A stretch of DNA of 64,000 bases, from positions 7,327-71,326 of the IMG/VR virus record IMGVR_UViG_3300009506_000017. The stretch is one strand, 5' to 3'. Source of the DNA: a virus. The notes beneath the pieces were generated by a model, which was not told where the DNA came from, made no database searches, and was given only the letters and a program-made list of their open reading frames with translations. Positions 20,194 through 24,421 of the stretch are shown in pieces (positions within the stretch are counted from its first letter, which is position 1; every line of letters begins with the position of its first letter). The translations under genes and the position numbers were made by a program.

Positions 20194-20855
20194 CACAGCT
20201 CATCGAAATCGCACGTCCAGACGACCACGATGCCCTCCGGCAAGCCTTCTATGCCAACGCACTGAGCCTCGCAGGGCTGGAGGCAGCCAAGATCGAAGAT
20301 CGACCTACATGGCTCGAGGTCCTGGGTCCGGTCAAGACGTTCTGGGACCTCGACCGTCCCTTCCGCATCTGGAAGGACGAGCAAGGCCATGTCCACACCG
20401 AGGGGGTTTCCACATGCGGTCTCGTCGCCGAAGGAATCTGGCGACGCATGAACGTCGACCTTGCGTCGCTCTACCTTGACTATGTCTGGGGAAAGGCGAT
20501 CGAGAGATCACGTGTCTACGCTCAGAAGCTTGGCGCATGGAAGACACCGCTCGCATTCCCTGGCCAACGACCGCAGAAGGGAGACACAATGGTGATCGGC
20601 AAGGGGTACTCGACGCACGCGTGCACCGTGCTCGAGACCGCAGGCGATGTGGTCTCCTCGATCGACGGAGGGCAAACCGGGTTGGATGATTTGCAGGCCA
20701 TCTACATGCGGACTCGCACGTGGAGAGATCACAGGGTTGCAAGAAGAGCTTTCGTGATCGGAACATTCACCAGGGAGGTGCAAGCCTGGATCGATGTCAC
20801 CAAGCTACACTACCGCGGCGAGACCTGCCTGGTGCCGAAGGGCTGGGAGTTCTGA
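20190..20855 (+). CDS. CHAP/NlpC-P60-like cysteine amidase (putative)
   Basis: STCGLVA (Cys), GDTMVIG...THACTV (His), SIDGGQ. Confidence 0.55.
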   Translation: MTQLIEIARPDDHDALRQAFYANALSLAGLEAAKIEDRPTWLEVLGPVKTFWDLDRPFRIWKDEQGHVHTEGVSTCGLVAEGIWRRMNVDLASLYLDYVWGKAIERSRVYAQKLGAWKTPLAFPGQRPQKGDTMVIGKGYSTHACTVLETAGDVVSSIDGGQTGLDDLQAIYMRTRTWRDHRVARRAFVIGTFTREVQAWIDVTKLHYRGETCLVPKGWEF

Positions 20856-23800
20856 TGGGCCTCGAGGTCTACCTGCTCGACAAGGGATCCGTTCCAGGAA
20901 TCGGAGCGGAGGTAGGCCGACGAGTGCGCAACGGAATCGCCAGGTACGTTAGCCCGCATGGAAGCTATCGGTACGTCTTGTACCGCAACGGCAATTCCAT
21001 CGCGGCGCTTCAGGCCGTGAGCTCCGATGGTGTCAATGCCACAATCGCGAACGTGTACGTGGTCCCAACTCATCGTCGTTCGGGTATCGCATCCAAGCTG
21101 CTTGCTCGAGCGAGACGCGACTTCGTTTCGGTCGTTCACGCAGAACGCGGAAATCTGTCCGCCGAAGGCAGGGCATGGTCAGAGCATGATCTTCATGGGG
21201 GCGCGGACATACCATCTCCTAACCCATACTTCAAGCCGTTGCAGCAACAGACGTCAGAAGAGGAGCTCGCACGTGGACTCGCCCAAGAAGCAGTGAACCG
21301 AGCAGTGCCCCCGCACAAGATTCCAGACACTGTGCAGCTGCTCATCCTGCCGGAAAGGATCCAAACCTCGTACTCTCCGGTATTTGGATACAACATGCCG
21401 ACCCACATGTTGGTCACCGCGGTGCTCATCGATCCCAGCACAGGAGACCCCGTGTACGCGATCGGCTCACCAGATCCATCCATCTTCATGCTGCGCATGG
21501 GCTACACGCGGCATCCAGGAAACGTCTGGACGACACGCAAGTACATGGTCCAGACGCTTCGCTACCGCTATCAGCCATGGCTCAACGAGATGAAGCCCGG
21601 GAACCTGAGTGCCGCACGTGAGCGCTACTCGAAGCTCTTTCACAAGAGCTATGGTGCGCATGTAGGAGAGATGCGTATCGTCGAGGTACGAAGCGGACCT
21701 CGCAAAGACGAAACCGTCCCGCTCTGGAGATCCGAGGTAGACGCCACCATTCGTTACGCCACGCAGGAGATTCCATGTTCCACCCCGTCAAAGGTGGCGA
21801 TGTGGATCCGGAAGACCAATGACGCTTGGGGTCAGTGGCAGCCCCAGGCAATCAAGATGCTCAGCCCCAGACTGCGAAGCCATTTCAAGGATATCGTGCA
21901 CAAACGCCTCGACGAGCTCGTTCTCGACGGAGTGCTCGAGCGAAAAGGGAAGTGCTACTACCAAGCAGGTGCGATCATGAAACGACGGACAGCAAAACCG
22001 AACCCGAAGATCACCCACGCCGGCACCATGGTCGACCTGGTCAAGCAAATCGCGAAGCAACCAGGGGCCCGTGTGCTGCTCGTTGGACCCGGTGCCAGTG
22101 GCAAGACAGCGATAGCCCGCCGTATCGCCCAGGAGCTGCCCAAGCTCACGCGAGCAGAGTGCGAAGAGCTGAACAAGATCTACTCGCAGACAGGGCTTGG
22201 TCCCCTGTGCGGACGCCCATTCCGAGCCCCACACTACACTGTGAGCACCGCTGGGCTTCTCGGTACCGCCAAGAGACCATCTGGGGAGGTCTCGCTGGCC
22301 ACATTCGGCGTGTTGTTTCTCGACGAAGTCCAGGAGTTTCGTCGCAAGGCCGTGGAGGATGTCAACAAGGCGCTGCGCGCGAAGATCGTGGCTCCATATG
22401 GATGGCCGGCAAATCCCCGCGTTGTGATCTATTCGGCGACGGTACCCCCCAACGCGAGCCCTCAGGAGATGGCTCGTTGGTGGGGGCGAGTCCACGCAGC
22501 AGTGGGAAAGGTTGACCACACCATCAAACTCGATTGGCCGATGACCGAAACCGTTAGGTTCGGGCAGATGATGCCGCTCGAGAATCCTGTGACCGAGAAA
22601 CCGTTCCGTGTCTGGATGGAGGATGGAAAACGGTTCCGCCGATACCCAGAGACGTTCGACAGCGAGAAGGAGTCGCTTGCCGCAGCCAGGGCTTTCATGA
22701 GGGCCCATAAGCCGCAGGGACACCAGGCACGCGTGAGCATCCAAGAGGGAGCAGAGGAGCTCTGGCGATGGGAGGCCAGATTCTACCGACCGAAAGGTCA
22801 CAACGCCTACGAGTGGAAGTGGATGAGCCAAAAGAAGCCACCGAAGATCGACTGGAGAATGGAGAGCCCAGGCAAGGGCAGAATCGTGATACGGACGCGA
22901 GCAAAAGGCGCACGCAAGAATCCGTACGCCTGTCCGGCGAAGCCGCCCGTTCGTGGCGAGCTCACCGCGGCGAAGCGTCGCCGCATACCCAAGAACATGT
23001 TCGCGCTGCCAGAGCGCCAGGATCTCCCGATCCACGATGCGAAGCATGCGAAGAACGCGAACTCCAGACTGACACAAATGCTCAAGCGTGGAACCGTCAC
23101 TGATTCGGAGTACCGCAAGGCCTACCGTAACATCATGGACGCCTATGCGTGCTTCGGTCTCGAGACTCGGACCAAACCTGCGATTCCGGTCTCCGGCGTC
23201 GCCAAGAGCAATCCCGCCGCCTACGGGCTGTTGAACAAGGACGAATCGCTTGGAGCGAAGCTGCTCGAGTACCACGGTGGGCAGAACACCGCGCTGTACG
23301 CTGTAGGCTCCTCGCTGTACGCAGGCAACGAACCCCCAAAGGAACTCTACGAAGATGCAATCGGAGAGCTCGACTCACTGCGCACGCATCCAGGCATGAA
23401 GCCTCATCGTACCTACTTGACGAAGCTGATCGGTCGGCTGCGTCGACGCGCCAAGCGTGCTGCGAAGTCCAACCCCAACTGCAACGCCGTGGTATGCGTG
23501 GGCCGTCGCAACCCAACGACCAGCCAGGCTCCATTCTGCCCAAGCTGCAAGTGCAACCCAGGCAAGAAGACGTGGGCGCAGGCCAAGTCCGACATCCTCG
23601 ACTACCTGGAGCAGGAGGGGTGGAAGGTCAGCGACAGAAGGCTGAAGACCCCGCATGCCACCGATCCATACGACGACTTCACGCTCTGGTTCCGCAAGCA
23701 AGCCATCTGGCTCGGCAAGGGGAAGACGATTCGAGGGGCACACACCACCTGGCTCGACCCCCGTGACATGACCCCTCAGCAGTTCGTCATGGCAGTCACA

Positions 23801-24421
23801 TCGCACAAGAACCCAGCCGGAATCCCGAAGGCTGTGGAGCGGTACTACAACGATGTCAAAGCCGGCAACCCCGGGTACAGCGACTCGCAGGCATGGGCGA
23901 CCGCATGGAGCATCTACTGCAAGCACAAGAGGCCAGGCAGTCCCCACTGTCGACGTCCGAGCGAAACGTACATGGCCAACCCCAAGCGTAGGAGCACGAA
24001 GAAAGTCAAGCGTGCACGCAAGAACCCCACCAAGGCATCGGTGGCAAAGGTTCAACTGAAGCTGCTCGAGTACAACGAGGATCTGGTGCCGGCGCGCCAG
24101 CGCCATGTGACGACGAAGACCCTCGGTCGAGCAGACAGCTGGATCCGGATGGTGTCACGCACGATGGATCCGAATGACATGTGGAAGGCCGAGTACGTGG
24201 TGTACTTCACGGACGGAAACAGCTTCGGTGGTCGGTACGACATCTACGGCCGTATGACCAAGAACCCTCCCATTGCTCGTCGGATCAAGCAATCGTGGAC
24301 ATACTCGTCGGGGCGCTTGCGACCGAAGCCGAAGCAGTATGACGCGATGCTCAAGGCGTACGTTGGAGAGCGCAAGATGGCCATCTTCGGTCGCATGCTC
24401 GACAACTACGCGTTGAAGTGA
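20855..24421 (+). CDS. 1188-aa polyvalent protein: GNAT + ComM/Mg-chelatase-like AAA+ + DUF6582-like + several small basic domains
   Basis: VYVVPTHRRSGIASKLL (GNAT motif A); GPGASGKT, RPFRAPHYTVS, GEVSLATFGVLFLDE (YifB/ComM); FALPERQDLPIHDAKHAKNA; 14 NP dipeptides. Confidence 0.8.
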   Translation: MGLEVYLLDKGSVPGIGAEVGRRVRNGIARYVSPHGSYRYVLYRNGNSIAALQAVSSDGVNATIANVYVVPTHRRSGIASKLLARARRDFVSVVHAERGNLSAEGRAWSEHDLHGGADIPSPNPYFKPLQQQTSEEELARGLAQEAVNRAVPPHKIPDTVQLLILPERIQTSYSPVFGYNMPTHMLVTAVLIDPSTGDPVYAIGSPDPSIFMLRMGYTRHPGNVWTTRKYMVQTLRYRYQPWLNEMKPGNLSAARERYSKLFHKSYGAHVGEMRIVEVRSGPRKDETVPLWRSEVDATIRYATQEIPCSTPSKVAMWIRKTNDAWGQWQPQAIKMLSPRLRSHFKDIVHKRLDELVLDGVLERKGKCYYQAGAIMKRRTAKPNPKITHAGTMVDLVKQIAKQPGARVLLVGPGASGKTAIARRIAQELPKLTRAECEELNKIYSQTGLGPLCGRPFRAPHYTVSTAGLLGTAKRPSGEVSLATFGVLFLDEVQEFRRKAVEDVNKALRAKIVAPYGWPANPRVVIYSATVPPNASPQEMARWWGRVHAAVGKVDHTIKLDWPMTETVRFGQMMPLENPVTEKPFRVWMEDGKRFRRYPETFDSEKESLAAARAFMRAHKPQGHQARVSIQEGAEELWRWEARFYRPKGHNAYEWKWMSQKKPPKIDWRMESPGKGRIVIRTRAKGARKNPYACPAKPPVRGELTAAKRRRIPKNMFALPERQDLPIHDAKHAKNANSRLTQMLKRGTVTDSEYRKAYRNIMDAYACFGLETRTKPAIPVSGVAKSNPAAYGLLNKDESLGAKLLEYHGGQNTALYAVGSSLYAGNEPPKELYEDAIGELDSLRTHPGMKPHRTYLTKLIGRLRRRAKRAAKSNPNCNAVVCVGRRNPTTSQAPFCPSCKCNPGKKTWAQAKSDILDYLEQEGWKVSDRRLKTPHATDPYDDFTLWFRKQAIWLGKGKTIRGAHTTWLDPRDMTPQQFVMAVTSHKNPAGIPKAVERYYNDVKAGNPGYSDSQAWATAWSIYCKHKRPGSPHCRRPSETYMANPKRRSTKKVKRARKNPTKASVAKVQLKLLEYNEDLVPARQRHVTTKTLGRADSWIRMVSRTMDPNDMWKAEYVVYFTDGNSFGGRYDIYGRMTKNPPIARRIKQSWTYSSGRLRPKPKQYDAMLKAYVGERKMAIFGRMLDNYALK

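Follow-up and report, generated by a model that had tools for sequence, protein, structure and literature searches.

What joins, and what might later separate, the unrelated folds that a phage strings together on a single polypeptide? The question is raised by a gene at positions 20855-24421 of a 64,000-nucleotide stretch of viral DNA (positions 7,327 to 71,326 of the IMG/VR record IMGVR_UViG_3300009506_000017; hereafter the window), whose 1188-residue product contains 14 Asn-Pro (NP) dipeptides. An initial annotation, made from the sequence alone, described these dipeptides as falling at borders between unrelated modules, nine of them behind basic residues, and read them as cleavage or linker signals that release separate effectors. 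We find that the protein is modular, that NP is in clear excess over its composition, that the dipeptides coincide with independently placed module borders, and that NP seams recur beside the same modules in relatives. Polyvalent proteins are a known kind of protein; the NP seam is an element that we did not find in the literature searched. We favor, with a probability of roughly 0.45, a reading in which NP marks a basic seam or hinge between folds and travels with the modules, within an intact, nucleic-acid-associated polyvalent protein.

Modules of the 1188-residue protein

The open reading frame (ORF) on the plus strand comprises 1188 codons without an internal stop. Its ATG at 20855 follows a GGGAG Shine-Dalgarno sequence by ~6 nucleotides and shares bases with the preceding gene's stop codon (TGATG), which makes 20855 the likely start and couples translation of the two genes. 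The net charge of the product is positive in every module. Full-length relatives were detected neither by blastn and tblastn of a phage collection, nor among 5.8 billion proteins, nor in IMG/VR; a search of 1.84 billion representatives drew 7682 matches, which cover different segments of the protein separately. At least six modules with independent homologues, together with orphan parts, share the polypeptide, and the GNAT-like, ComM-like, DUF6582-like, LEYHGGQ, X and Y modules occur among uncultivated phages both as solo proteins and in other orders. The initial view of a polyvalent, modular phage protein is thus borne out by modules that match separately and have solo and shuffled relatives, and by sequence comparison we regard the product as a phage polyvalent protein of what appear to be at least nine independent modules. 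Because only two small families could be aligned for the full-length AlphaFold model, its quality is poor (mean predicted local distance difference test score, pLDDT, of 44.5), and we used it for its confident islands alone (residues 581-659, 720-777 and 990-1035).

The N-terminal module scores above the Pfam cut-offs of Acetyltransf_13 (24.3 bits, cut-off 22.8) and Acetyltransf_1 (22.1 bits, cut-off 20.7), and RRSGIA at residues 74-79 provides the acetyl-CoA loop motif R/Q-x-x-G-x-G/A. It measures only ~112 residues versus ~150-160 for a complete GNAT fold (motifs C-D-A-B), with Pfam matches spanning residues 35-98 and pLDDT values of 27-39 for the block in the AlphaFold model. Its homologues are either solo proteins of ~120 residues (range 120-140) or segments at varied positions in proteins of 200-5812 residues; in P0060 and P0078 the module is joined to long arrays of helix-turn-helix domains of the Fis, Xre, MerR and transposase types. 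The following region, residues 124-382, is devoid of NP and returned no Pfam, homologue or Atlas match, a search with residues 113-397 being likewise empty.

Residues 388-550 match PF01078 at 2e-24 (86.6 bits, cut-off 20.3), over profile positions 16-133 of 207 only, and the PDB entry of ComM, 8rxd, at 1.9e-14; the alignment with homologue P0122 begins at residue 388. The segment resembles ComM/YifB in its Walker A (GPGASGKT) and Walker B (LFLDE) motifs, its RPFRAPH segment and an identity of ~45-50% over ~110 residues, but the N-terminal ChlI/Lon-like part and the C-terminal Mg_chelatase_C lid are absent here: PF13541 and PF13335, which flank the ATPase in ComM, have no match in the 1188-residue protein, unlike in P0122. 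The confident domain that follows, residues 581-659, gave no informative structural relatives, as the best matches to the full-length model stay at noise level (Z ≤ 7.0). The anti-CRISPR AcrIF9 is among the structural neighbors of residues 580-668 at Z 5.0-5.6, within the tool's stated noise range.

The central module at residues 691-784 matches phrog_16160 at 2e-11, and five homologues, in which it is sited at differing positions, are 46-60% identical across these residues. DUF6582 itself (PF20223) stays below its gathering threshold (13.8-18.4 bits versus 27.3), as it does for the relative P0068. Two of the module names proposed initially, GNAT and AAA+, are accordingly confirmed above Pfam cut-offs, whereas the third, DUF6582-like, stands through the PHROG match and not through Pfam. 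Two Cys and two His residues of this module are kept in relatives (Y-x-C ... IHD..H ... CFG), which suggests a metal site. Downstream, the LEYHGGQ module has P0159 as its single matching protein; helices are modeled at residues 830-843 and 852-871. Next comes a Cys knuckle of 26 residues, flanked by NP 873 and NP 901 and with NP 886 in its loop.

Modules X and Y supply direct proof of shuffling. Module Y, modeled with a block pLDDT of 93-95, aligns to the N-termini of P0013, P0028, P0156, P0157 and P0158; comparison of module order, which the initial annotation had proposed as a check, revealed that P0013 (156 residues) carries Y and then X, the opposite of the order in the 1188-residue protein, and that P0028 (569 residues) has Y at its N-terminus and X at its C-terminus. 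X and Y co-occur across other proteins, have no Pfam or PHROG family, and from their joint occurrence probably form a functional pair. The C-terminal part, residues 1059-1188, has no family match, and an Atlas search of residues 1058-1188 gave no usable match.

This architecture can be set against that of polyvalent proteins at large, which combine two to fifteen unrelated domains per polypeptide in phages, plasmids and conjugative elements, with RimI-like GNATs, RadC and helicases as typical components (Iyer, Burroughs, Anand, de Souza, Aravind 2017, PMC5512222). Shared features are the unrelated domains in one phage polypeptide, the RimI-like GNAT, the RadC and SNF2 proteins encoded nearby, the solo versions and the mosaicism. 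The protein differs in that it contains no metallopeptidase, MuF, ART, ParB or peptidase domain and in that X, Y, LEYHGGQ, the domain at residues 581-659 and the orphan parts have no Pfam family.

Asn-Pro excess and module borders

From the composition of the protein 3.26 NP dipeptides are expected; the 14 observed (Table 1) represent a 4.3-fold excess that none of 20,000 shuffles reached. NP is the strongest outlier of the 400 dipeptides (z 5.95, runner-up 3.64), and SP, DP and TP show no enrichment. The remaining ORFs of the window have a milder excess (46 NP observed versus 27 expected, 1.7-fold), in which NP follows hydrophobic residues, and after allowing for this background the Poisson probability is 0.002. 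The nine basic contexts tabulated initially (KPNP, RKNP twice, KSNP twice, RRNP, KCNP, HKNP and TKNP) are all present: Lys, Arg or His precedes nine of 14 sites versus 4.3-4.9 by chance in a protein with 19% of these residues (p 0.01-0.02), which is weaker evidence than the NP excess itself. Elsewhere in the genome NP occurs in basic context only once, as VRRNP in the N-terminal leader of a RadC/JAB protein. Codons differ among the sites, with only AAY-CC in common, so the dipeptide is a feature of the protein; a DNA-level repeat or recombination site is ruled out on the same grounds.

To relate the dipeptides to the architecture, eleven borders were fixed without reference to NP: where solo homologues end, where the Pfam profile of ComM has its first position, where a module has a conserved start or end, and where the confident AlphaFold domain has its edges. 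Seven of the 14 NPs lie within 3 residues of a border, a zone covering 7% of all positions (p 2.3e-5); at 5 residues the zone covers 11% and the count rises to eight (binomial p 2.7e-5). Low-confidence stretches of the model begin or end at residues 580, 691, 778, 905, 986 and 1040, that is, 0-8 residues from NP 577, 689, 786, 901, 986 and 1042. Most seam NPs sit 3-6 residues ahead of the first secondary-structure element and not at its cap. The proposed placement at module borders therefore holds for eight sites and fails for three that are internal to modules (520, 886 and 1005), with another three left unplaced.

Seam NPs also recur in relatives. Of 40 GNAT-like homologues, 8 have an NP within the 10 residues that follow the module, and of 32 homologues 6 have one within the 10 residues that precede it; over the module edge plus 12 flanking residues NP reaches ~6.4 times background, more than any other X-Pro pair. 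P0060, for instance, has KKENP ahead of the module and GENPP behind it, whereas P0078 has RKNP ahead of it and P0073 has GNPP behind it. Mapped onto a maximum-likelihood tree of the module, the NP flanks of 14 rows require 11 changes, a number as low in 72 of 500 label shuffles, and this scatter speaks against one inherited flank. Relatives of the DUF6582-like module are NP-rich as well (4.4-fold): K(P/A/R)NP(T/V)K is embedded in the Lys/Ala/Pro tails of P0040 and P0068, and NP in Lys/Ala/Pro-rich linkers adjoins the module in P0026, P0077 and P0143, standing just after it in P0143 and P0026. On one phage contig, L003, the DUF6582-like homologue is the sole NP-rich protein. Around module Y, P0156 keeps NP 986, 1005 and 1042. 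At the ComM junction NP is present in 2 of 76 ComM-like homologues, which are mostly full-length and ComM-type; one of the two, P0113, is a solo truncated ComM-like protein that carries KARRNP and resembles the query.

Hinge, processing site or tag

In the reading that we favor, NP, usually after Lys or Arg, would form a short basic turn, which we infer to be of the Asx-Pro type, 0-6 residues beyond the outermost secondary-structure element at either end of a module; it would close one fold and open the next, and would move along with modules as they are shuffled. The seam would then be not a scissile bond but an insulating hinge, or a short tag for recognition, in a protein that stays intact, and this protein would act on nucleic acid or together with it, either in the early phase of infection or within the virion. 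Phages and plasmids are believed to deliver polyvalent proteins alongside their DNA as a multi-tool; a two-residue seam would offer both a working rule for dividing orphan members of this kind into modules and a concrete site for mutation and for deciding whether such proteins are cut. Even if uncut, the seams would illustrate how phages can link unrelated folds that do not disturb one another.

Several observations weigh against a hinge. Of the junctions that the GNAT module makes in relatives, only roughly one in four carries NP. The hydropathy of the NP flanks is the same as that of random positions (p 0.45), and long disordered linkers at these sites were dropped from consideration since the flanks are not unusually hydrophilic. 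NP 123, 873 and 1137 fit neither a border nor a domain, in a model of the low mean confidence given above. Asn is preferred over Ser, Thr and Asp before Pro, which a pure turn would not require. Finally, the motif is found in the short N-terminal leaders of the solo proteins P0050, P0156 and P0113 and in RadC of the window phage; a hinge between domains would be purposeless in a solo-protein leader, which a tag or propeptide fits better.

Near-identical basic (N/H)-P leaders head small proteins on two unrelated metagenome contigs (L007:708-3037 and L005:4971-5864). They read MKTLRFQRRNP (L007), MKTLRFKRKHP, MRFLSFRSNP and MFGMRFIQNP, and from their sequences look like a common N-terminal tag or propeptide. 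No M..RF..NP leader was found on the credible genes of the window's own genome.

An alternative that we consider unlikely takes basic-x-Asn-Pro motifs as processing sites, cut by a phage cysteine peptidase or by autocleavage through the Asn side chain, with short NP-ending N-terminal leaders also removed, in the capsid or after entry. The position of the NPs at module seams and the preference for NP over Ser-, Thr- or Asp-Pro agree with it, as do the short leaders of solo relatives that end in the motif (MRFLSFRSNP, MFGMRFIQNP, MKTLRFQRRNP). A parallel is offered by the internal proteins of phage T4 (IPI-III, Alt), which are basic, delivered with the DNA and equipped with a capsid-targeting leader that the prohead protease gp21 cuts at the motif L/I-x-E. 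Alike in both cases is a short leader that ends in a minimal motif, 7-10 residues long and NP-ending in the module relatives. Unlike T4, the motif here is NP, and the ORFs scanned yielded neither a prohead protease nor a capsid or scaffold gene that bears the motif; the 1188-residue protein itself is without a T4-type leader because its GNAT-like module begins at the very start.

Asn-Pro bonds are also known to cleave themselves, as in the NPTH loop of FlhB/YscU. Precedents are the periplasmic domain of RsgI, where NP forms a tight turn between two beta strands, and reovirus mu1 and aquareovirus VP5, cited for N42-P43 (PMC10328401). In all of these proteins NP belongs to a specific folded domain. 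The dipeptide is the same, and NPT(K/T), which occurs at some sites of our protein and of its relatives, comes near to NPTH. Most NPs of our protein, on the other hand, lie outside confident domains, NP 1005 lies between helices, and the 1188-residue protein has no sequence match to autocleaving Asn-Pro families in Pfam or PDB. For polyvalent proteins in general, processing has been predicted, P1 DdrB being processed, and has been credited to embedded metallopeptidase domains, with no sites named and the word "linker" absent from the account (PMC5512222). Two genes might furnish a peptidase: that at 16776-17555, with its papain-like motifs (Q-x5-C, H, N-W-W), and a transglutaminase-core gene beside a Y-module protein in L005.

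Several findings count against processing. NP 1005 and NP 520 lie inside folds, so that NP alone would be insufficient as a cut signal; P1006 is nearly invariant in the alignment of module Y, and the model places NP 1005 in an intradomain turn at a pLDDT above 90. The replacement of NP by SP at the same post-module position in many GNAT-like relatives (V-G-S-P versus V-G-N-P; SP is ~3-fold enriched after the module) counts against a scissile role as well. There is no consensus past NP and a loose basic residue, the motif occurs in no other protein of the genome but RadC, and Pro at P1' blocks most endopeptidases. Candidate peptidases are without Pfam or PDB sequence support, and a prohead protease was not recognized among the scanned ORFs. 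The cleavage signal, the packaging and the anti-defense effector role advanced initially receive no computed support and are putative, and no protease family was matched next door by Pfam or by PDB sequence search.

More doubtful still is an extension of the same idea, in which a broad group of uncultivated phages would share a processing or loading signal: polyvalent and solo cargo proteins would be cut at, or docked via, NP, by autocleavage or a dedicated cysteine peptidase, and the 134-kDa precursor would free about 10 basic effectors with the injected DNA.

We find it improbable that the motif is solely a short linear binding tag, whether for minor-groove or nucleic-acid contact or for docking at capsid or portal so that proteins are loaded with the DNA. 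The protein is basic throughout (+91, isoelectric point 10.1), its two clearest linkers carrying +9 each; P0040 and P0068 bear their motif in long tails of the histone-H1 type; the motif is found on solo proteins and in the RadC leader; and the gene closes a block of tail-like, lysis and spike-like genes to which it is coupled. SPKK and AT-hook sequences are minor-groove motifs of histone-like tails. The seam resembles them as a short (Ser/Thr/Asn)-Pro turn among Lys and Arg, repeated in basic linkers and accompanied in relatives by Lys/Ala/Pro tails, but has Asn in place of Ser or Thr and variable flanks, and its DNA contact is putative. Against a tag, once NP is given its basic context exceeds chance by a modest margin only, many of the seam NPs in relatives have no basic residue before them (GENPP and VANPA are two cases), and the neighbors of the L003 homologue look like polyvalent DNA-metabolism fusions and not like clear virion parts.

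It is very improbable that NP is just a generic turn or helix-start dipeptide, multiplied by many small domains in a basic protein that contains Pro and Asn: NP does run 1.7-2.0-fold over expectation in other window ORFs and control proteins, and NP 1137 and NP 1005 precede helices, but the excess here is 4.3-fold and outlasts correction for that background, the other N-cap dipeptides SP, TP and DP are not enriched, most seam NPs stand away from the cap, and scattered relatives have NP at the same seam position. A 2A-type ribosome-skipping mechanism (NPG-P) was rejected because such skipping is known only from eukaryotic ribosomes.

Genomic context and candidate peptidases

The seams discussed under the hinge reading, the modules they separate and the adjacent genes are collected in Table 1. 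The source contig, of 72,434 bp, has nearly all genes on one strand and is that of a phage or phage-like virus, with PHROG matches to tail-like proteins, a LysM/endolysin, a virion transglycosylase, RadC, an SNF2 helicase, a topoisomerase-like protein and a serine recombinase (integrase/invertase). Terminase, portal, major capsid and prohead protease families were not recognized among the contig ORFs scanned with PHROGs and Pfam. The polyvalent gene is the last large gene of the block with tail-like, lysis and spike-like genes.

Table 1. Coordinates of the polyvalent gene, its modules, its Asn-Pro sites and neighboring features in the window
Feature	Residues	Window position	Strand	Remarks
RadC/JAB protein gene		17501-18208	+	~110-residue Arg-rich N-terminal leader
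VRRNP in RadC/JAB leader		17648..17653	+	sole other basic-context NP in window
Upstream, translationally coupled gene	221 residues	20190..20855	+	Cys and His motifs; no Pfam or PDB sequence match
Polyvalent protein gene	1188 residues	20855..24421	+	134 kDa, isoelectric point 10.1, net charge +91
Module 1, small GNAT-like (RimI-type) acetyltransferase	1-112	20855..21190	+	Pfam, homologues; ends at 21190
NP 123 (SPNP)	123	21221..21226	+	11 residues past GNAT-like module end
Orphan region	124-382	21224..22000	+	zero NP; possible winged-helix-like end ~338-369; low AlphaFold confidence
NP 383 (KPNP)	383	22001..22006	+	4 residues ahead of AAA+ module; P0113 has KARRNP there
Truncated ComM/YifB (Mg-chelatase-type) AAA+ P-loop	388-550	22016..22504	+	Pfam, PDB
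NP 520 (PANP)	520	22412..22417	+	within AAA+ homology region
NP 577 (LENP)	577	22583..22588	+	3 residues ahead of confident 581-659 domain
Small beta-beta-alpha-beta-beta-beta domain	581-659	22595..22831	+	AlphaFold block pLDDT 74-84; no aligned homologue
NP 689 (RKNP)	689	22919..22924	+	immediately ahead of conserved start of DUF6582-like module
DUF6582-like / phrog_16160 module	691-784	22925..23206	+	conserved Y-x-C...LFALP...LPIHD..H...CFG
NP 786 (KSNP)	786	23210..23215	+	2 residues past DUF6582-like module end
LEYHGGQ..LYAVGSS module, then basic helix	~813-871	23291..23467	+	matches P0159 (697 residues) at residues 385-455
NP 873 (KSNP)	873	23471..23476	+	between basic helix and Cys knuckle
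Cys knuckle (C-x4-C ... C-x2-C-x-C)	875-900	23477..23554	+	read from translation; no family match
NP 886 (RRNP)	886	23510..23515	+	Cys knuckle loop
NP 901 (KCNP)	901	23555..23560	+	start of module X
Module X	902-979	23558..23791	+	aligns to P0013 residues 66-146 and P0028 residues 472-538
NP 986 (HKNP)	986	23810..23815	+	X/Y seam; kept in P0156 (QNPESIP)
Module Y, two-helix core	987-1041	23813..23977	+	...NP.YS.SQAWATAWSIYCKHK...; homologue alignment
NP 1005 (AGNP)	1005	23867..23872	+	inside module Y, turn joining its two helices
NP 1042 (MANP)	1042	23978..23983	+	module Y end; kept in P0156 (FQNP)
NP 1057 (RKNP)	1057	24023..24028	+	end of 16-residue linker, net charge +9
Orphan C-terminal part	1059-1188	24029..24418	+	weak helices and strands 1138-1185 in model
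NP 1137 (TKNP)	1137	24263..24268	+	directly ahead of predicted helix 1138-1145, C-terminal part

Two genes of the window were considered as peptidases. The first, at 16776-17555 (+), encodes 259 residues, sits 3.3 kb upstream of the polyvalent gene and has by eye a papain-like spacing, with Q-x5-C in ..QEGTASCFGW.., then His, then DNWWHNWG. It has no Pfam (even at E 10), PHROG or PDB sequence match, and a single-sequence AlphaFold model reached a pLDDT of 31.7. The second, at 20190-20855, is likewise without a Pfam (even at E 10) or PDB sequence match. Neither has relatives in IMG/VR or the metagenome contigs, and no resemblance was found to the transglutaminase-core protein of L005, whose gene adjoins that of the Y-module protein there.

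The L003 phage contig, 72.8 kb in length, contains at 1-14181 a run of giant multi-domain genes (>1118, 1174, 728, 848 and 545 residues), one of which fuses sliding-clamp-like and RusA-like parts and another of which holds a GNAT.

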